IMG/VR virus record: IMGVR_UViG_3300026625_000038
Coordinates: 1 to 25,459 of that record
DNA: 25,459 nt
Direction: 5' to 3' (one strand)
Origin: a virus
Below are positions 1,791 through 25,459 of this stretch, piece after piece (position 1 is the first letter of the stretch; every line of letters begins with the position of its first letter). Under the pieces are notes generated by a model that saw nothing but the letters and a program-made list of their open reading frames with translations, was not told where the DNA came from and did no database searches. Both the position numbers and the translations under genes were made by a program.

Positions 1791-1804
1791 TTTGTGGAGT
1801 ATAG

Positions 1805-1816
1805 TATAAATATGTC
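1805..1816 (+). promoter_or_regulatory. TATA box + GTC promoter of the HTH/AcrIII-1 operon
   Basis: tataaatatGTCata, 32 nt before ATG 1848. Confidence 0.6.
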
Positions 1817-1847
1817 ATATTTCTTATTTTATAATGGGATAGACAAA

Positions 1848-2018
1848 ATGAAAAAAGAGGTACAAGTTGGAAACAAAACATATGTAATACAAAACAAAGA
1901 AGATTTTGTTAAGCTAGTGCATGAACTTGCAGTACAAGGTTATACTTTGTCAGAAATAGCGAAATTGCTAGGAATTTCAGAAAAAAGAGTTTTAAGTTAT
2001 ATGCAAGAATGTTGGTGA
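1848..2018 (+). CDS. 56-aa helix-turn-helix DNA-binding protein
   Basis: The track ORF starts at GTG 1794, but a TATA+GTC promoter at 1805-1816 lies inside that extension, so ATG 1848 (MKKEVQ...) is preferred. GYTLSEIAKLLGISEKRVLSYM is a classic HTH. The gene ends 6 nt before the next gene. Confidence 0.7.
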   Translation: MKKEVQVGNKTYVIQNKEDFVKLVHELAVQGYTLSEIAKLLGISEKRVLSYMQECW

Positions 2019-2024
2019 TTTAAA

Positions 2025-2384
2025 ATGGGTAATTTATATTTATTAAATTCGCCAATAATACCTACAAAAAAGAATATTGTAGTTGCTATAAGAAATATAT
2101 CGCTTGATGATACTAAAAAATTGGTACAAAACCAAAAATTTATATCTGCAATTGGACATGATGTTACTGCTAAATTACTAAGCATGTTGCTAGGTGTAGA
2201 AGTTCCAGTAAACAGAATACAAGTTTATTTTGATGAAGGTGATGAGGCTATAGTATTTACTTTAAAACAGCGGTTGGCAGAAGGGCAAGTCCTAAAAACA
2301 ATTGAAGAAATCGAAAAAATTGGGTATGAGTTAAAACTTATAAAAGTGCTAACTGGTTTTACTTACGTTTATAGTTCTTCATAA
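2025..2384 (+). CDS. acrIII-1: DUF1874-family protein, viral ring nuclease anti-CRISPR AcrIII-1 (119 aa)
   Basis: Family-typical motifs: SAIGHD (His45), VNR (Arg64) and RLAEGQVL..EEI (Glu86). Spacing matches SIRV1 gp29 / STIV B116 as I remember them (catalytic His47, Glu88). Size is ~115-120 aa. Confidence 0.8.
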   Translation: MGNLYLLNSPIIPTKKNIVVAIRNISLDDTKKLVQNQKFISAIGHDVTAKLLSMLLGVEVPVNRIQVYFDEGDEAIVFTLKQRLAEGQVLKTIEEIEKIGYELKLIKVLTGFTYVYSSS

Positions 2385-4918: not shown

Positions 4919-5869
4919 TTAAGTGCACTGGTTATTTATAACTACTGCAGTAGGTGCTATAATAACTGCTCCTACATTTGTATTACAAATTAAATTATTT
5001 ATTACGGAATTATCATTTACATAAATATAACCATTTTGGGTATTTATGGTTAAAGTATTAATAAATGCATTTCCATTAAGGTAAATTTTACCAGTATTGT
5101 ATGAAATTGATAATGTTTCAATTGAAGAACTATCATTTACATAAATATTTTGAATATTATTATTTATGGTTAAAGAGTTAATAAATGCATCATTATAAAG
5201 ATAAATGTTTCCATTACTTGATACAATTACTAATTTATCAATTATTCCATAGTTATAAATGTTTTGACTCAAAGAATTTAAAAGTAAATTTTTTATATAA
5301 GTATTGTTTGAAACTGATAGGTTATTGCTTAAGTTGTATATTAATACATTTAAAAATGCAGTTTGCGTGCTTAGTAGGTTAATAAATTCGGCACCTGAAC
5401 AACTTAAAATAAAATAAGTATTATAATTAAAAGTTAATAATTGATTTACTGCATAAATTACATTTGCAAATTGCGAAGCTTTAACAATTTCGTTCGGTTG
5501 TACATAATTTAATTTTGTTTGTAATTGTATATTAGCCATATTTGCTAATTCTATAATTGCGTTTATTAAGTTGTTAAAATCATCAGCGTTAAGCGGTGTA
5601 CCCGTTTGGGCATTAAGTAAAGGGGTAAAAGTATAAGGCGTAAAATTTTGCGGAAAATTATTAAATTGTTGAATTGCAGGAAATATATAATCTGTATATG
5701 GAAATGCTGATAAAAAATTAATATATTGAAATACGCTATATGTTAAATATAAATCTTGTACAATTTCATTCCATAGTGAAGAAGAAATTATTGAATATTT
5801 ACTTGGTGGAGATAACAAATTAGCAATTTGGTAAACATCAGTGCATTGAGTAGTAGTCGCGATGGTCAT
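4919..5869 (-). CDS. Structural-type protein with tandem 40-aa repeats (316 aa)
   Basis: Intact ORF 7 nt downstream of the 530-aa gene, so likely an operon. The C-terminal half has two 40-aa repeats (IYLYNDAFINSLTINNNIQNIYVNDSS / IYLNGNAFINTLTINTQNGYIYVNDNS), suggesting a beta-helix or fibre. Confidence 0.75.
   Translation of the reverse strand: MTIATTTQCTDVYQIANLLSPPSKYSIISSSLWNEIVQDLYLTYSVFQYINFLSAFPYTDYIFPAIQQFNNFPQNFTPYTFTPLLNAQTGTPLNADDFNNLINAIIELANMANIQLQTKLNYVQPNEIVKASQFANVIYAVNQLLTFNYNTYFILSCSGAEFINLLSTQTAFLNVLIYNLSNNLSVSNNTYIKNLLLNSLSQNIYNYGIIDKLVIVSSNGNIYLYNDAFINSLTINNNIQNIYVNDSSSIETLSISYNTGKIYLNGNAFINTLTINTQNGYIYVNDNSVINNLICNTNVGAVIIAPTAVVINNQCT
5011..5250. repeat. Two 120-bp tandem repeat units inside the 316-aa gene
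   Basis: tatcatttacataaata...atttatggttaaag..ttaataaatgcat recurs at 5011 and 5131, matching the 40-aa protein repeat. Confidence 0.85.
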
Positions 5870-5876
5870 TGTTTTA

Positions 5877-7469
5877 TTAACCTACAAATACTATAGTTTG
5901 TTGCGGTTGAGAATTTGAAGGCATTACTCCATTTGGAGGATAAGCTCTAGTCCTAACCCAATATATTGTAGGAAAATTGTAACTTTGTGCGTTATAAGCC
6001 CATCCAAGTGCAAGATAATCAGTTTCTGCAGTTACAGAATTATTAGTATACGAATTACCTTCATAATACCATGTTACTGTTGTCCCACCATTCCGTACTC
6101 CAAAAATTTGTATTCCTGACGAAGAAATAGAAACAGTATTAATTTTTGTATTATTATTAAAAAGTGTATCAGACCCTGATACGCCTAACATATGCATGTT
6201 TGAGTATCCTGTATACCTATTTAGCTGAAAATATGTATAATTTCTAGAATATGTGGTAGATGACATATTTAAAGCCCATTCTGCTATTATCGATGATGTT
6301 TCTTGAACATTTAAATTATATGCAGAAGGAGCAGAACCGCTGGAAGGTTCAGCGATAAAACCGTTATTTACTTGGTAACTAAAACCTGAAGGGACTGTCC
6401 ATGCCGGGTTTAATGTAGTCCCTTTAAAATTATCATAAAAATTAAATACATTTCCTCCATTATCATATTGTGCATATGTAGAAGATAAATATGGGGCCAT
6501 TCCAGTGTAAGGGTATTGAATTGAATTTTGTATAAACATATAAATAGTTAATGAACCATTTGCTGGAATTGAAGTTGGGATTTTTACCCAAATATAAGCA
6601 TTAGTTAAATTATTTTGTTCAATCCAAGCATATAATGGAGTATTACATTGAGGGTCTAAACAAAATTGCAAGTTTAAAAGCTGACTTGCACTTGATAAAA
6701 GAGTTGATAAATTTAGAATTAGCAATTGTTGAAACGGTGAAGGTGTTGGGTATGGCTGATTATTTGTTATTGTAATTACATAAGTAGATATTGGAGTTCC
6801 AGTAAAACTAATTATCTCACTTAACAAAGTCGGACTTTGTGCAGTTAATTGTATTTCTGATGGAGAACTCGCAGTTATTTTTAAACATTGTTTAGGCATT
6901 AAATATATTGCATTGTTTATTTGTACTGCGTTATTGCCTAAATTTTGAATTGTTATTTCTCTCCAAGTTTGTAAATATGAAGGGTCAAAATAATTTTGTA
7001 TTAAATTTTGTACAGTCGTAGAACCGGAAAATTGAAATTGAGTGCCTGCTACATAGTTTGGTACGGTAATTTTACTTATTAAATTTGGAATTAATAGTTG
7101 TAATTGTTTAGCCAACGGTTGTAATTGTACTTGAAAGTTTAGAGTTGGCAATGTTATAGTTTCTAATCCAAAAAACGGTCTGTTTGCCATACTTTCAAAC
7201 GGTTGTTGGTTTCCCATGCCAAAAGTATAAGCTTCTGGCTCTGACAAATTATGTAAAGCGTTATAACCGTTTATTTTCAAACTTGCAACACTTAAATACT
7301 TTGCAATTACTTCATTTAAATTTTGAAAACTACCGTTTTGGAAATATTGTAATAATTGAGCTGAACCGTATTGATTTAAAAATAATAAATTTTGTATGAA
7401 GTTATTCCATTCTTGCAAAGTTAAATATTCTAGGGGCAATTTATAGTTAATAGTGTACGGTAAAGCCAT
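5877..7469 (-). CDS. Large minor virion protein class (530 aa), C-terminal DUF2341 / ConA-like lectin-type domain
   Basis: Intact ORF behind a structural-type promoter (7511-7537). IWVKIPTSIPANGSLTIYMF resembles the DUF2341 signature, and YDNGGNVFNFYDNFKGTTLNPAWTV resembles the start of a LamG/ConA-like domain. Size falls in the ~530-580-aa conserved rudiviral virion protein class. Confidence 0.8.
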   Translation of the reverse strand: MALPYTINYKLPLEYLTLQEWNNFIQNLLFLNQYGSAQLLQYFQNGSFQNLNEVIAKYLSVASLKINGYNALHNLSEPEAYTFGMGNQQPFESMANRPFFGLETITLPTLNFQVQLQPLAKQLQLLIPNLISKITVPNYVAGTQFQFSGSTTVQNLIQNYFDPSYLQTWREITIQNLGNNAVQINNAIYLMPKQCLKITASSPSEIQLTAQSPTLLSEIISFTGTPISTYVITITNNQPYPTPSPFQQLLILNLSTLLSSASQLLNLQFCLDPQCNTPLYAWIEQNNLTNAYIWVKIPTSIPANGSLTIYMFIQNSIQYPYTGMAPYLSSTYAQYDNGGNVFNFYDNFKGTTLNPAWTVPSGFSYQVNNGFIAEPSSGSAPSAYNLNVQETSSIIAEWALNMSSTTYSRNYTYFQLNRYTGYSNMHMLGVSGSDTLFNNNTKINTVSISSSGIQIFGVRNGGTTVTWYYEGNSYTNNSVTAETDYLALGWAYNAQSYNFPTIYWVRTRAYPPNGVMPSNSQPQQTIVFVG

Positions 7470-11353: not shown

Positions 11354-11815
11354 TTACCCCTTATTTAACCATTTAATAAATATTGGGTGTTTTGTCCTAT
11401 TTGTTTCTCCAATTTGTTGAAAACCGGCTTTTTTATATAAAGCATTTGAATGGTCTAACATACCTAAAGTCCACAACACTTCAATCCCGTCATTTTTAAG
11501 TTTTTCACTTAAATCAATTAAAAATTTAACTAAGTAATCTCCAGGTGCCGTTTTTGTAATTCTTCTAATAAAATATGTTCTATCAAATGGAATATTATAA
11601 TTTTGTGCAATAAAACGAAAAGGCGTATTATCGTGAAGCCATGCAATTGCAACTATAAATTTTTGGTTTTCTTCATTTGCAATATATAAAAAATAACGGG
11701 AATATTTTCCAGCTCCACTGCCTTGAGGTATTGATTGCGAATGATAAAATTCAATTAACAACCTTGCAAATTTTATTAATTCTTTTTCTTTCGCTTCTTC
11801 AATTACAAACTCCAT
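11354..11815 (-). CDS. GNAT-like acetyltransferase-fold protein (153 aa from ATG 11815), putative
   Basis: The C-terminal ...NALYKKAGFQQIGE is a typical GNAT motif B. RRITKTAPGDYLVKFL resembles the acetyl-CoA-binding loop. The track start at 11827 is TTG. The gene lies 3 nt upstream of hjc, so likely an operon. Confidence 0.6.
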   Translation of the reverse strand: MEFVIEEAKEKELIKFARLLIEFYHSQSIPQGSGAGKYSRYFLYIANEENQKFIVAIAWLHDNTPFRFIAQNYNIPFDRTYFIRRITKTAPGDYLVKFLIDLSEKLKNDGIEVLWTLGMLDHSNALYKKAGFQQIGETNRTKHPIFIKWLNKG

Positions 11816-11841
11816 ATTTACCAACAATTATTACAGTGTAT

Positions 11842-11855
11842 GACATATATATACA
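11842..11855 (-). promoter_or_regulatory. TATA box + GTC promoter of the GNAT-like / hjc operon
   Basis: The minus strand reads tgtatatatatGTCatac, ~27 nt upstream of ATG 11815. Confidence 0.55.
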
Positions 11856-11901
11856 TTATGCGTATTGTGAATTTTTGTTTTTTAACTGCACATTTGTAAT
11901 T

Positions 11902-13302
11902 ATGGCTACTGTGTTAAGTAAAAGAAATATTGCATCGATGAAACAAAAATTATATCAAAAAGTTTTAAATAGAAATACATTTCCGGCATTTTCAGCGATG
12001 TTTGATGCCGGTGTTTTTTCAGTTTTACCTTCAGCATTGGAAAGTATTGAAATACCGGAAGGTATAAATACAAATTACGGTATTGCTTACGCTTCAATTA
12101 TTACAACTTTGCTTTCTTCATTAAATAATTTAGCAATTTCAACATTTAATTCTGATATAACAAGTTTTACAAATTTACAACTAGGTTTTACTCCTTTGTT
12201 TGGTACTGCAAGCGGTTTACAATTTGTACAACAAAGTACCGCTTTATATGATAATTATGTAAAACTATGTTCAACTTTGTATCAACCGGCGGTTTTTGAT
12301 GAAACTTATTTTGGTTTAAGCGTTTATCAACCAGCATTAGCAATTGAATACCAAAACGCTTCTTGTAAAAAAATTGAAAAATATTTTTCTCAATTACCAG
12401 TTTCAAATATTTCTGTTGATTTACCTAGTTTAGGTATTGGTAATACTAGTATTACAAGTTCCGATAGTTTTAGTTTACAAAATATACAGAATACCGGAGT
12501 TAATGATTTATTAAATACATTAAATATAAACTACAATCAACTACCCGATTTAGCTAAGTTTGTTATTTCGTTTATTCCAAATTTAAACGAAATAATTAAT
12601 AGTGGACTTGCGCTTGATGTTGGGTGGCTAGATAGGTGTGTTTTAGTCCCAAATATTGAAGAAATACCAAGTTATAAAGTACAATTACAAAACGGTATGA
12701 TTTTGCAAAATTTTGCGGATATTTTTGGGATGATTTTGGATTATACACCTCTAGATTTTGCGGTTTTAATTCCCGAATTTAATCCTAATAATGTTACACA
12801 ACTAGATTTAGTTGCTATTTTAACGGCAGATAAAACTGTAATTTCAATATTTGGCAGTTTGTTTAAATTGCATTTGTATGACCCTTCACCAGGTGGGACA
12901 AATATAGCTTATAATTCAGAAATTGAGAATTATGCTGTTACTTATCAACAATTTCTCAACATTCAACAAATTGTTAATAAAAAATATGCCAATGTCTGGT
13001 ACGCTAAAATGGTGGCAAGTGCAATAATTGAAATTGCTAGATATCCATATCAACAAAATTATAGTTATAATTCCGGAAAAAGGACATTATCTTATTCTGA
13101 CTTTTTGAATTATTGGCAAACAAAATGGTCTTTTTATGGGGTTTCGCAAGAAGATTTACAATTTGCGCAACAATTTGGAGAACAATTGCAAGGCCAAGCC
13201 CAAGTTGAAAATGTGTTAAAACAAGCACAAAAATCTACTAAAGTAAAACAATATAAACCGATATTTTATTATAAAAACTTCCAAAATATTGCAAGTAGGT
13301 AA
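11902..13302 (+). CDS. Conserved minor virion protein class (466 aa from ATG 11902)
   Basis: The track ORF begins at 11677 but overlaps the divergent gene and promoter. ATG 11902 (MATVLSKRN) lies after the divergent promoter region 11828-11901. Size falls in the ~460-490-aa conserved rudiviral structural protein class. Confidence 0.8.
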   Translation: MATVLSKRNIASMKQKLYQKVLNRNTFPAFSAMFDAGVFSVLPSALESIEIPEGINTNYGIAYASIITTLLSSLNNLAISTFNSDITSFTNLQLGFTPLFGTASGLQFVQQSTALYDNYVKLCSTLYQPAVFDETYFGLSVYQPALAIEYQNASCKKIEKYFSQLPVSNISVDLPSLGIGNTSITSSDSFSLQNIQNTGVNDLLNTLNINYNQLPDLAKFVISFIPNLNEIINSGLALDVGWLDRCVLVPNIEEIPSYKVQLQNGMILQNFADIFGMILDYTPLDFAVLIPEFNPNNVTQLDLVAILTADKTVISIFGSLFKLHLYDPSPGGTNIAYNSEIENYAVTYQQFLNIQQIVNKKYANVWYAKMVASAIIEIARYPYQQNYSYNSGKRTLSYSDFLNYWQTKWSFYGVSQEDLQFAQQFGEQLQGQAQVENVLKQAQKSTKVKQYKPIFYYKNFQNIASR

Positions 13303-13317
13303 CACAAAATTTCCACA

Positions 13318-13343
13318 CTATATTCCTAATATTTTATATATAG
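13318..13343 (+). promoter_or_regulatory. Structural-type promoter module, copy 1 of a tandem triple
   Basis: ctatattcctaatattttatatatag: a TATA-rich core flanked by the dyad CTATAT...ATATAG. Confidence 0.55.
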
Positions 13344-13377
13344 CGTGGTGGAACTGTGAAACTACACAAAAACAGTG

Positions 13378-13402
13378 CTATATTCCTAATATAATATATA
13401 TA
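13378..13402 (+). promoter_or_regulatory. Structural-type promoter module, copy 2 of a tandem triple
   Basis: ctatattcctaatataatatatata, exactly 60 bp after copy 1. Confidence 0.55.
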
Positions 13403-13462
13403 ACTCAGCATTTTTGTGGAATTGCAATATTTTTATAACAAAAAACCGTATAAAAAGCGAGT

Positions 13463-13487
13463 CATATTCCTAATATAATATATATAG
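13463..13487 (+). promoter_or_regulatory. Structural-type promoter module, copy 3 of a tandem triple (proximal to the ORF at 13536)
   Basis: catattcctaatataatatatatag, 84 bp after copy 2 and ~49 nt upstream of GTG 13536. Confidence 0.6.
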
Positions 13488-16366: not shown

Positions 16367-16525
16367 ATGCAAGAAAGAAAAGAAAAAATAAAGGTAATAT
16401 TTGGTATACAACTTGACAAAGACTTAAAAACAAGACTAAAACTTTACTGTGCTAAGAAGGACATGACTTTAACGAGTGCCATTGAAGAAGCTATTGAAGA
16501 GTACTTAACAAGAAGAAACGCATAA
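16367..16525 (+). CDS. Ribbon-helix-helix (CopG/SvtR-like) transcription regulator, 52 aa (not in ORF track)
   Basis: Hand translation: MQERKEKIKVIFGIQLDKDLKTRLKLYCAKKDMTLTSAIEEAIEEYLTRRNA. It shows a beta strand (VIFGIQLD), helix 1 (LKTRLKLYCAKK) and helix 2 (TLTSAIEEAIEEYL). Its own TATA+GTC promoter lies at 16327-16338. Confidence 0.7.
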   Translation: MQERKEKIKVIFGIQLDKDLKTRLKLYCAKKDMTLTSAIEEAIEEYLTRRNA

Positions 16526-19645: not shown

Positions 19646-19683
19646 ATTACAACATATAAAAAAAATATACCTTTAAGTTTTGC

Positions 19684-19860
19684 TTACTTGTACATTTTAA
19701 ATTTTTCAACCTTTATATTATAAGTGTTGTTATCTTTTATCACTTTATCTATCGCCCTCCTTATTACTTCACTTCTGTCCATGTTGTGTTTACTTGCATA
19801 TCTATCTAACAATTCCAGCATTTCTGGGTCAATTTTAAATGAGACCACTTTCATTGTCAT
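19684..19860 (-). CDS. Ribbon-helix-helix (CopG-like) DNA-binding protein, 58 aa (not in ORF track)
   Basis: Hand translation of the minus strand: MTMKVVSFKIDPEMLELLDRYASKHNMDRSEVIRRAIDKVIKDNNTYNIKVEKFKMYK. It shows a classic RHH (strand VVSFKID, helices LLDRYASKH and RSEVIRRAIDKVI). Its ATG directly abuts the TAA of the upstream 88-aa gene. Confidence 0.72.
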   Translation of the reverse strand: MTMKVVSFKIDPEMLELLDRYASKHNMDRSEVIRRAIDKVIKDNNTYNIKVEKFKMYK

Positions 19861-20127
19861 TTACATCACTTCTTCAAGTTTCCTTGTTATTTTTATTTTT
19901 CCTATTGTTATATTAACAAAAATGGTATCATTATTAAATGAGTGGTAAAATTGTATTTCAAACTTTAATATTTTACCGCTTATTTTTAAGTAACCGTATA
20001 TTTCTACGTCTTGCTTAGTGTAAAATAAAATTTTGAATCTTGTTGAAAAGTTGATAGTATTCATTAAAATTTTGTATATTTCTTCTTCTTTTATGCTATA
20101 TACCATGTCTTCCAGGCTGTATTCCAT
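19861..20127 (-). CDS. Hypothetical 88-aa protein (candidate anti-defence gene, first gene of an operon with the RHH)
   Basis: Intact ORF behind two promoter elements (20154-20172 and 20203-20228). No motif recognised. Confidence 0.6.
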   Translation of the reverse strand: MEYSLEDMVYSIKEEEIYKILMNTINFSTRFKILFYTKQDVEIYGYLKISGKILKFEIQFYHSFNNDTIFVNITIGKIKITRKLEEVM

Positions 20128-20153
20128 ATTTCATCGTATTACTTATGGTTTAT

Positions 20154-20172
20154 GACACTTAAAAATATTTTT
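20154..20172 (-). promoter_or_regulatory. TATA box + GTC promoter of the 88-aa/RHH operon
   Basis: The minus strand reads aaaaatatttttaagtGTCataa, ~27 nt upstream of ATG 20127. Confidence 0.55.
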
Positions 20173-20202
20173 GGTTTTTAAGCTTCATGGTTATCACTGG
20201 CT

Positions 20203-20228
20203 GTATATATAATATTAGGAATATAGCA
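20203..20228 (-). promoter_or_regulatory. Structural-type promoter module facing the 88-aa/RHH operon
   Basis: gtatatataatattaggaatatagcac is the reverse complement of the module, ~80 nt upstream of ATG 20127. Confidence 0.5.
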
Positions 20229-20277
20229 CTGTGCATTATTGCTTGTTCTTTCTAATTTTTTAATTTGCATTCTATAA

Positions 20278-20946
20278 TTATAACTTTTCTAATAATTCTC
20301 TTAATTTTTTATGATGCCTTAATATTGCCGGTTTATGACACATTTTTTGTTTTTTCTTTTCTCCCATTATATCTTGGAAACCGCCGGCAATATAGCAACT
20401 AAAAACTATTTGATATCCACCTGGAGATACTTGTAATGGCTGTTTTAAAATACCTAGTTTATCATACGGTGGACTAGAATTAGGTATAAAATAATTCGGA
20501 TAAACAAAATCAGAAACTTGTATATTATCAATTACATAATAATAATCTTCAACTGGATCGCCAACTTCTTGCATATAAAATTTGGAAAATAAAAAAGAAG
20601 GCGATACGGCTAATAATGTATTTACGTATGGGTCTGCTAACATTTCCAAAACTTCATGTGAAAGACCTACAGTCCACGAAAAACCAATATTATTAAAACT
20701 GTTTATAAAAACTTTAGCATAAGGTATATTATTATTATCAACATCATGATAACCACCTGCACCTGGCACATCGCTATTATCTTCAATTATAACTTGCCAA
20801 CCTGTACAATTAGGATCCGCCGAAATTATAGCTTCAATATCCCAAATAGGGTAAAAATCTTGTTGTATTTGTTTATTTATAGCGTTTACAATTGGCTGTA
20901 AATTAATTTGGTATGAACTATTATTTTTCAAACAAAGTTGTATCAT
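20278..20946 (-). CDS. Hypothetical protein (222 aa) with an HExxE..DP motif, possible metal-dependent hydrolase
   Basis: Intact ORF with GAGGYHDVD...VGLSHEVLEMLADP...EVGDPVED and a basic C-terminal tail. It is not among the rudiviral core genes I recognise. Confidence 0.65.
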   Translation of the reverse strand: MIQLCLKNNSSYQINLQPIVNAINKQIQQDFYPIWDIEAIISADPNCTGWQVIIEDNSDVPGAGGYHDVDNNNIPYAKVFINSFNNIGFSWTVGLSHEVLEMLADPYVNTLLAVSPSFLFSKFYMQEVGDPVEDYYYVIDNIQVSDFVYPNYFIPNSSPPYDKLGILKQPLQVSPGGYQIVFSCYIAGGFQDIMGEKKKQKMCHKPAILRHHKKLRELLEKL

Positions 20947-21328: not shown

Positions 21329-22219
21329 TTATGAAATTTCATGAAGCCCAAACCCCATATCCTTTAATGCTGTATACCTCAAATCTTCATAATCTATTCT
21401 ATTTAAAACTTCTTCTTTATTCATTATAATATAATTATCTTTTTGCAACAACAGGAATTTTGTTCCCTCAAACAGGAATTTTGTTCCCTCATCAACTTCT
21501 GCTAAATTAGCATATGCATCACTATTTGTGGTAAACAGCATTGACTTTAATTTATTATCTTTTATATATTCTGTAAACCATTTAAGAAGCATTTGTAACC
21601 TTTTAGGGTGCAAGCTTAGTGTCTCGATATCATCTATTAGAAGTATATCTGGTTTATGATGATATACCAACCAAAGTAACTTTACCGTGTTACTAATACC
21701 TCTTCCTAAATTATCCAAATATGTTACATTATCACCGTTTTCATATAAAAAATCATCAACTACACGTATCACAGCACCATCAATAAGTCCTTTTATCATG
21801 TCATTGAACTTCATATCTTCATCATCAGGCTTAACAAATATACCGTAATGTGGTTGGTGAACCATTGTCCGAAAGGCGTAAGGATATATTATCATCACCT
21901 TATACTTAGTACTACCTTTACAATCATAATGATACATTTCAGAAAAAGGTGAAATAACAGAATTAAATGGAAGACGTGTTCTTTCTGCTTTAACATGTTC
22001 ACATTTTACTTCTTCATCGTTAATATTAACTGAAAAGTTTTCATAATTAATGCTACCTTTTGTATTTAAAATTGTAGAAATATTATCCTTATTCGTTAAT
22101 GCTATTCTCTCCAAAAACGCGGTTTTTCCGACTCCGTTATTACCAACTATAGCAACTGTAGATATATTTTCAAGCAATATGGAACGATTGTAATAAACTA
22201 CTAATAGTTTATTTAACAT
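21329..22219 (-). CDS. Minimal ABC-type / AAA_21-like ATPase (296 aa)
   Basis: Walker A VAIVGNNGVGKTAF, signature-like LGRGISNTVKLL, Walker B plus D-loop ILLIDDIETLSLHP, and an H-loop-like MLFTTNS. It contains an in-frame 21-bp tandem duplication. Confidence 0.85.
   Translation of the reverse strand: MLNKLLVVYYNRSILLENISTVAIVGNNGVGKTAFLERIALTNKDNISTILNTKGSINYENFSVNINDEEVKCEHVKAERTRLPFNSVISPFSEMYHYDCKGSTKYKVMIIYPYAFRTMVHQPHYGIFVKPDDEDMKFNDMIKGLIDGAVIRVVDDFLYENGDNVTYLDNLGRGISNTVKLLWLVYHHKPDILLIDDIETLSLHPKRLQMLLKWFTEYIKDNKLKSMLFTTNSDAYANLAEVDEGTKFLFEGTKFLLLQKDNYIIMNKEEVLNRIDYEDLRYTALKDMGFGLHEIS
21450..21491. repeat. Perfect 21-bp tandem duplication inside the ATPase gene
   Basis: aacaggaattttgttccctca occurs twice back to back, encoding EGTKFLF-EGTKFLL in frame. 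Confidence 0.95.
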
Positions 22220-24181: not shown

Positions 24182-25459
24182 TTCCCTTTACCTCACTCTA
24201 TATATCTCACTCCTCACTTTTAAATTTTTCTGTAAACTTATACACACAAATTTTTACCTTTACTACCTTTCTCCGTTTTTTAACCTTTTTAATCTTTTTC
24301 CAAAAGTAATACTTTGGAGAAATATACCTCTGCACGCCACAATTATAATTATAACTACTAACTAGTAACTAACTAATTATATAATATATAGCTTGCAAGC
24401 TGTAAATTAACAAATTACAAATTGCAAAACTTATTATTAAAATATTAAAACACTGCAAACTTGCAAACTATAAATAATTATAACTTATAACTATGCAATA
24501 TTGCAAATTAAAATTTAATATATAATAACAATAAAATAATAATAATAAAAAAAACGATAACCTACACTACTTATAACAAATGCGTTTTTTTAGTATATAA
24601 ACCTAACTACACCACTTAATTGTATTACCCATGCAAAAATGTAAAACAGTATAACTAAAGCGTGAAAAAATTTTGCATGTAAAAGGTGAAAAATTTTTGC
24701 AAGTGCAAAGTATTAAACGCTTGCAAGTTTGCAAACCATAAAACTAAAAAGTTTTTACATCATGCGTTTAAATAAAAAGTTTACAAGTTTGCGAGTTGTA
24801 AAGTTAAAAGTTATGTAATTACGTAAGATGTTTAGTAACTTTATAATTCTCGCAAGAAAAATGTCTGGTTCCGCCTAATTAACAACTAACAATATAACTA
24901 GCTTATAGTTACGAATTTGCTAATATGTTTAGTAACTATTAGTTTTAAATATATGTCTGGTTCCGCCATATTATATAATATATAATTAACAAGTTGCTAA
25001 TTACAAACTTAGCCAAAATTGTAAAATATATTACTAGCAAATTATTAATTAAAGCTTTCAAATATATGATTTTTACGATTTTTAAATAAATAAAGTTAAA
25101 CATTTGCAAATATATTATTTCCAGTTTTTACGGTTAAATCTAATAATAATCTAATATGGATACTTTATTACAATTTATGAAATTGTATAGCTCCGAATTT
25201 TTTATTTAAATTTGCAAATAAATCAAGATAAAATATAAATAGCAATTTATATATTAATAATTTTTATAGCACCCCAAAAAAATTTAATAAAAAACCCAAT
25301 TTAAAATGATTTGCAAACTTTTAATTTTATGCAAATTTAAGATATTTTGGAAAATTTTGAAATAATTGATTTTTAAAATATTATTAAAAATATAAAAACA
25401 AATGGTTTTTACGATATTTTTTGAATTTACCCCCCAAAATCACATAAAAACAAATTACC
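24160..25459. repeat. Right inverted terminal repeat (ITR), ~1300 bp
   Basis: Reverse complement of 1-1300. Divergence begins at 24159, corresponding to left nt 1301. Confidence 0.97.

Follow-up and report, generated by a model that had tools for sequence, protein, structure and literature searches.

In SIRV2, the rod-shaped virus 2 of Sulfolobus islandicus, the second gene of the gp20-gp21 operon encodes a ribbon-helix-helix (RHH) protein of the aCcr1 clade (Li et al. 2023, NAR, PMC9976892). Expression of gp21 leads to growth arrest, larger cells and more DNA; the protein binds AGTATTA in the cdvA promoter and in other host promoters and represses host cdvA. Viral targets are bound as well, namely the gp17 and gp20-gp21 promoters, which are called middle-late; an electrophoretic mobility shift assay showed the binding to the latter. 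Knockout of gp21 failed, and its replacement by the host gene failed too (PMC9976892). ATV gp29 and SMV3 gp63 act in the same manner, in that cells overexpressing them stop growing, become larger and contain more DNA (PMC9976892; PMC9976878). The cellular aCcr1 of Sulfolobales (SiRe_0197 / SiL_0190; Yang et al. 2023, PMC9976878) recognises the aCcr1-box, a 9-bp palindrome A(T/G)G(A)TA(G)A(T/G)TACN (PMC9976878), which is also given as AGTATTA / AGTAATACN, the target site for cdvA repression (PMC9976892; PMC9976878). The variants R2A, K7A and R27A of the S. islandicus protein were made as DNA-binding-deficient (PMC9976878). Archaeal anti-CRISPR (Acr) genes are organised in another way, being immediate-early, terminal single genes under the winged helix-turn-helix (wHTH) protein Aca8 (Bhoobalan-Chitty 2024, PMC11065993). 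Low conservation among related viruses is a further mark of the archaeal anti-defence gene class of that study. Here we describe a gene pair in the IMG/VR virus record IMGVR_UViG_3300026625_000038, analysed over its whole length of 25,459 bp (hereafter the window), in which a gene for an 88-aa protein (19861-20127, minus strand) is followed by one for a 58-aa RHH protein (19684-19860, minus strand). The initial annotation had likened this pair to an Acr gene with its Aca autoregulator. In all likelihood it is the orthologue of the SIRV2 gp20-gp21 operon, bicistronic, translationally coupled and served by its own promoters, with the 58-aa protein as a viral aCcr1.

Gene pair and junction

The TAA of the 88-aa open reading frame (ORF) (19863-19861) directly abuts the in-frame ATG of the 58-aa ORF, as had been noted at the outset, and the RHH nature of the 58-aa product is confirmed by a match to Pfam RHH_1 (E 5.9e-8, 32.8 bits against a cut-off of 20.5). 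Both are real genes under purifying selection. On comparison with the two close IMG/VR relatives that make up the window's own lineage (L005 and L061), synonymous differences in the 88-aa gene number 8 and 14 and non-synonymous ones 4 and 1 (pN/pS 0.11 and 0.02), while the pN/pS of the RHH gene is 0.03 and 0.07. A Shine-Dalgarno (SD)-like AAGTGATG lies in the final codons of the 88-aa gene (19864-19871, minus strand), 3 nt ahead of the RHH ATG. Junctions of this kind recur, since GGTGAT, GGGGTAAT or GAGGTAAT is found 4-10 nt ahead of the RHH ATG in every lineage with a downstream RHH gene, the SD-like GGTGA / GGGGTAA being embedded in the last gp20-like codons; SIRV1 and SIRV2 have the same motif with an ATGA overlap, in place of the 0-nt TAA-ATG junction of the window. 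In 16 of 16 uncultured IMG/VR loci an in-frame ATG directly follows the gp20-like stop codon. These features point to translational coupling of the gp20-like gene to the RHH gene through the SD-like motif in most lineages. Past the RHH stop, at a distance of 19 nt, there is a T8 run (19658-19665, minus strand) that is likely to be an archaeal oligo-T terminator.

Over 19861-20290, the 150-bp upstream region is 100% identical to that of L061, while synonymous divergence from L061 is 0.30 in the 88-aa and RHH genes as against 0.01-0.11 in neighbouring genes. Because pS between neighbouring genes spans 0.01-0.31, which suggests a recombination mosaic with a breakpoint near the 88-aa start codon, the complete intergenic identity is not readable as constraint.

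Assignment of the 58-aa RHH protein

A word-indexed homologue search returned near-identical proteins only, for both genes, and wider relatives were collected by tblastn, hidden Markov model (HMM) and IMG/VR scans. By tblastn the RHH protein has 53-54% identity to its counterparts in SIRV1, SIRV2 and SIRV3, with lower values in many crenarchaeal viruses; in alignments the identity to the SIRV1/2/3 proteins is 56-58%. In the clade alignment the values are 48-57% to cellular-genome aCcr1 rows (Sulfolobales chromosomal homologues from a scan of one genome per prokaryote species), 46-57% to viral members and 22% to SvtR. A maximum-likelihood tree of the RHH proteins, built on 60 columns only, places the window protein within a clade (support 92/96) together with SIRV2 gp21, the other viral members and all cellular aCcr1, from which SvtR is separated at 100/100. 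Like cellular aCcr1, the window protein is a 58-aa protein with a single RHH domain. Its beta-strand K-V-V-S-F-K agrees with the [KR]-V-V-[TS]-F-K of the clade, and R29 of its (N/D)RSE corresponds to the conserved R in NRSE. The DNA-contact positions R2, K7 and R27 of aCcr1 align with K4, K9 and R29, the R-to-K change being conservative and the same in SIRV2 gp21. Judged by these alignments and the tree, we identify the 58-aa protein as a virus-encoded form of aCcr1, which regulates cell division in the host. The differences are that the window copy is viral and would be co-expressed with a virus-only partner, whereas the cellular genes have no gp20-like neighbour, and that its C-terminal tail diverges from that of SIRV2 gp21.

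SvtR (SIRV1 gp08 / SIRV2 gp15, ORF56b) is likewise a small rudiviral RHH repressor that binds its own promoter, as is predicted for the window protein. It belongs to a different clade, and BLASTP of the 58-aa protein against SvtR gave no alignment. The genome also has a separate SvtR orthologue, a 52-aa RHH gene (16367-16525, plus strand) adjoining a Rep-like gene and having 67% identity to SIRV2 gp15 / ORF56b; the 58-aa protein is unrelated to SvtR.

A gp20-like gene with an RHH gene was also found on contigs of three bacterial assemblies, Colwellia asteriadis JCM 15608 (L024), Streptomyces gamaensis CGMCC 4.7304 (L025) and Planomonospora alba JCM 9373 (L026). The RHH sequence of L026 equals SIRV3 gp16, and in all three the gp20-like ORF has a score identical to that of its SIRV3 counterpart; these loci are almost certainly rudivirus DNA contaminating the assemblies.

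Promoters and candidate operator

Two promoter elements had been proposed upstream of the 88-aa gene, and both turn out to be over-represented motifs in the genome. The proximal one (20151-20172, minus strand) consists of a TATA box and GTCATA, the rudiviral TATA+GTC signature; its core TTTTWADNTGTCATA (20165-20151) has 7 genome matches against 0.93 expected. The same module stands ahead of the gp17-like, gp18-like, p97, p296, p145 and p356 genes, and ahead of gp20 homologues in SIRV1, SIRV2, Usarudivirus and uncultured loci. A GTC motif 3' of the TATA box is described as a known SIRV1/2 promoter feature (Kessler 2004, as cited in PMC5569661). The distal element TTCCTAATATTATATATACAG (20221-20201, minus strand), which was termed structural-type and would be a further promoter module, has 7 genome matches at ≤3 mismatches against 0 expected, including one at 15653-15633, 47 nt 5' of the capsid gene start, and three in tandem at 13323-13487. 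It is unchanged in L005 and L061, and it is additional to the arrangement of SIRV2.

Between the GTCATA motif and the 88-aa ATG, at about the expected transcription start, lies an exact aCcr1-box, AGTAATAC (20143-20136, minus strand), the target motif of the cellular regulator. Only 1 of the 7 TATA+GTCATA promoters of the genome, that of the 88-aa gene, has the box so placed. L005 has the same 10-nt block AAGTAATACG, although of the remaining 12 bases that separate GTCATAA from the ATG 5 are different (approximately p = 0.03 by hand calculation). The position of this candidate operator is compatible with the RHH protein repressing its own operon, and autoregulation through the box is plausible because the orthologue SIRV2 gp21 binds the gp20-gp21 promoter. 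A sigma-70 promoter and terminator scan was irrelevant, the virus being archaeal.

Boxes were also seen elsewhere in the genome. Each inverted terminal repeat (ITR) holds a perfect palindromic aCcr1-box within the 15-bp palindrome AAAGTATTACTTT (1144-1158, mirrored at 24302-24316), about 125 nt 5' of the start codon at the ITR end, which feeds the terminal genes; their expression might also be influenced by the viral aCcr1. At 12440-12455, inside a 541-aa ORF (11677-13302), a perfect 16-bp palindrome GTAATACTAGTATTAC is made up of two aCcr1-boxes that abut each other.

The 88-aa protein and synteny across rudiviruses

The 88-aa protein matches phrog_8868, a family of unknown function, with E 1.1e-13. 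The profile match is full-length and the FY-K ... GYL ... FE ... (T)IG motifs of the gp20 family (SIRV2 ORF84a / SIRV1 gp13) are conserved. By tblastn it has homologues in SIRV1-11 at 32-38% identity (33-41% in alignment), an HMM search of 1.84 billion representative proteins gave only 11 gp20-family clusters, and the gp20-like loci from IMG/VR are all in rudivirus-like gene contexts. On the strength of these searches it can be assigned to a small rudivirus-only family, the isoelectric point (pI) of whose members ranges from 5.6 to 10.1. AlphaFold2 modelled the protein with confidence (predicted local distance difference test, pLDDT, 90; predicted template modelling score, pTM, 0.81) as two N-terminal helices and a five-stranded antiparallel sheet, and a second run with a deeper alignment gave the same fold. 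Foldseek against the PDB returned nothing specific (best E 0.19), and a wide VIA-align search reached a best Z of 5.9, where the usual noise is 7-8, with generic helix-on-curved-sheet matches of the cystatin-like and NTF2-like type. A profile search of PDB sequences yielded chance TcdA-repeat matches only (E ≥0.035), and the ESM Atlas yielded unnamed bacterial clusters at 0.90, within the chance range. In BFVD the matches were confined to the SIRV1 orthologue and a SIRV9 paralogue of 119 aa. There was no Pfam family or PADLOC match for the 88-aa product, and no function for gp20 in the literature searched.

Some rudiviruses carry a second, divergent gp20 paralogue of 119 aa with a C-terminal extension, phrog_28348-like (L088 5253-5612; L086 ~5831-6148; SIRV9 A0A1X9SJI3).

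The order of the pair is shared with SIRV2, where the hits are the adjacent genes gp20 (ORF84a) and gp21 (ORF59b) with a 4-nt overlap, directly downstream of gp17-gp18-gp19; SIRV1 and SIRV3 are alike. In 16 of 16 uncultured IMG/VR loci the genes run gp17-gp18-gp19-gp20like-RHH on one strand, and gp20 homologues adjoin the gp19 nuclease gene in every lineage examined, Usarudiviruses included. The window pair also neighbours the gp17-19 block. In the window lineage (L005, L061) the pair is still coupled, yet it lies on the strand opposite to gp19; in the window it has its own promoters and borders the accessory, anti-defence right arm that starts at 20278. Across lineages gp20 is the most divergent gene of the block (32-45% identity against 65-83% for gp18 and gp19). 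The cellular aCcr1 genes examined have no adjoining gp20-like ORF. From these gene orders, gp20 appears as a virus-only companion of the viral aCcr1 in most, not all, lineages.

Other rudiviruses have different small genes in the slot upstream of the aCcr1-type RHH. In Stygiolobus rod-shaped virus (SRV; L013 1380-2018, ORF148-ORF58) it is a STIV_B116-like / DUF1874 (AcrIII-1 family) protein, 15 nt upstream (Pfam E 6.8e-17), and in ARV1 and SSRV1 it is a different small family, helical by eye. None of the three (SSRV1, ARV1, SRV) showed homology to the gp20 profile by hhalign.

In Usarudiviruses an acidic coiled-coil protein of 63-67 aa (L006 2738-2929; L088 4160-4363) takes the place of the RHH downstream of gp20, and a similar one is a separate gene in other uncultured rudiviruses.

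Proposed role and alternative explanations

The results above show that the pair is orthologous to gp20-gp21, that the RHH protein falls in the aCcr1 clade, that the coupling is conserved, where the box lies and that selection is purifying; for what the 58-aa protein binds and does we lean on SIRV2 gp21 and cellular aCcr1 as analogues. A dimer of the RHH protein would bind aCcr1-boxes (AGTAATAC / AGTATTA) in host promoters such as that of cdvA, and the resulting repression of cdvA would block division and keep the host replication-permissive. The promoter of the operon, with its exact box, is probably a further target of the dimer, and with the box overlapping the expected transcription start this would put the operon under negative feedback. 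The 88-aa protein would be made from the same mRNA in fixed proportion to the RHH protein. Any role given to it is conjectural; our best guess is a virus-specific, protein-binding accessory of the middle-phase programme of host takeover and replication. That the partner is virus-specific is taken from the lack of an adjoining gp20-like ORF at the cellular aCcr1 genes. Going further, gp20-family proteins could alter the activity or the targets of the viral aCcr1, or act on another component of the host's cell cycle or defence, a tentative suggestion to which we give a low but appreciable likelihood; if true, it might help explain the failure of host aCcr1 to replace SIRV2 gp21.

Several observations weigh against the assignment of the locus as a coupled, self-regulated viral aCcr1 operon. 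SIRV1, SIRV2 and most other lineages have gp20 promoters without the exact box. Genome-wide, AGTAWTAC has 9 matches against 2.5 expected, an enrichment that is inflated because palindromic sites and ITR copies are counted twice, leaving about 6 independent sites. In the Usarudiviruses (SIRV4-11) the gene after gp20 encodes a 63-aa acidic coiled-coil protein, the aCcr1-like RHH gene being elsewhere; therefore gp20 is not strictly dependent on an adjacent RHH gene. Also, when both in-frame genes were modelled as a read-through fusion (TAA=G) with a paired 16-row alignment, the pTM was 0.55 and the junction pLDDT below 50, with no confident packing of gp20 against the RHH part, whose N-terminus forms no strand; this is a weak test of interaction because RHH proteins fold only as dimers.

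In another explanation the 88-aa protein works within the gp17-gp18-gp19 replication and recombination module (single-stranded DNA-binding protein, annealing ATPase and Cas4-like nuclease) and its coupling to the RHH gene means shared expression only. The constant place of gp20 homologues beside gp19, even at the Usarudivirus loci, where gp20 has no RHH gene after it, fits this, as do a promoter class that is the same as that of gp17 and gp18 and the binding of SIRV2 gp21 to the gp17 and gp20-21 promoters alike. In the window lineage, however, the pair is served by promoters of its own and runs opposite to gp19, so that the 88-aa gene travels with the RHH gene rather than with gp19. Most lineages keep the SD-coupled junction to the RHH gene, no nucleic-acid-binding fold was recognised in the 88-aa protein, and the pI range of the family is wide, so we consider a role confined to the replication module unlikely. 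Far less probable still, to the point of being hardly credible, is a type II toxin-antitoxin pair, in which the 88-aa protein would be the toxin and the RHH protein the antitoxin, a reading that had been put forward as an alternative to the Acr one. RHH proteins are common as antitoxins, the two genes are tightly coupled and there is a weak, sub-threshold DUF6290 match, but no toxin family matches the 88-aa protein, and the cellular aCcr1 genes to which the RHH is most closely related are essential and stand alone, a gp20-like gene beside them being absent. The SIRV2 RHH protein arrests growth when expressed by itself. An RHH antitoxin gene usually precedes its toxin gene, and the order here is the opposite.

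As for the reading as an acr-aca locus, in which the 88-aa protein inhibits CRISPR-Cas or another defence and the RHH protein is its dedicated autorepressor, the layout described initially was borne out and the function was not. A small protein of unknown fold, a coupled RHH gene and tandem promoter modules are indeed present. The locus thus resembles archaeal Acr/Aca8 loci (SIRV2 gp01/gp54 Aca8 with AcrID1 and AcrIIIB1; PMC11065993) in joining a small rudivirus protein to a small autoregulating DNA binder, and SIRV2 gp21 does bind its own promoter. The pair abuts the right-arm anti-defence region, gp20 diverges more between lineages than the rest of its block, extra gp20 paralogues exist in some genomes, and the SRV gene directly upstream of the aCcr1-type RHH is of the DUF1874 / AcrIII-1 family; all of these favour an anti-defence role. 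On the other side, the RHH protein belongs to the aCcr1 clade, whose host cell-cycle role is documented and which is core and probably essential, and not to the wHTH family Aca8, which targets immediate-early single terminal genes. The window pair is bicistronic, its orthologues are syntenic beside gp19 and the replication operon in at least 4 rudivirus lineages, and the promoter of the SIRV2 orthologue is middle-late. Neither SIRV2 gp20 nor gp21 is among the 354 predicted archaeal anti-defence genes (PMC11065993). The comparison with AcrID1 and AcrIIIB1 that had been proposed beforehand, extended to AcrIA3, gave hhalign probabilities below 1% for the gp20 profile and thus no similarity; to this may be added the absence of Pfam and PADLOC matches and the strongly purifying short-term selection on the gene. 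Further, the genome's Aca8 homologue is located elsewhere, at 1791-2012 (plus strand; 39% identity to SIRV2 gp54, E 4.4e-17). The pair cannot count as a demonstrated anti-CRISPR locus, and for the 88-aa protein an anti-defence role is unsupported; we regard the acr-aca reading as very unlikely and the locus as a weak anti-CRISPR lead. The Aca8 homologue lies directly upstream of a 119-aa gene (2025-2384, plus strand) labelled DUF1874 / AcrIII-1, and by these labels the two (1791-2384) would be the genome's more credible aca-acr unit.

Taken as a gp20-gp21-type operon, the locus adds a further, divergent rudivirus lineage to the viruses carrying a copy of the host cell-cycle repressor aCcr1, and it shows cleanly, in a natural setting, how an exact aCcr1-box can occur in the promoter of the regulator itself. 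Its partner gp20 is conserved, with a confidently predicted fold that has no known match, a coupling to the viral aCcr1 in most SIRV-like viruses and no cellular counterpart.

Genome context

As a virus record the window is linear and complete; it has perfect 1,300-bp ITRs and about 27% GC. Because its gp17-gp18-gp19-like block has about 74% DNA identity to Sulfolobus islandicus rod-shaped viruses, we assign it as a complete rudivirus genome, from a lineage that, as judged by these comparisons, has no representative among the matching phage records. At 21329-22219 (minus strand) it encodes a 296-aa AAA_15/AAA_21 ABC-type ATPase, which has no nuclease domain and matches defence ATPases of the AriA, AbiLi and PtuA type; among host proteins, the OLD-family ATPase Cran1 is itself a target of aCcr1 (PMC12796447).

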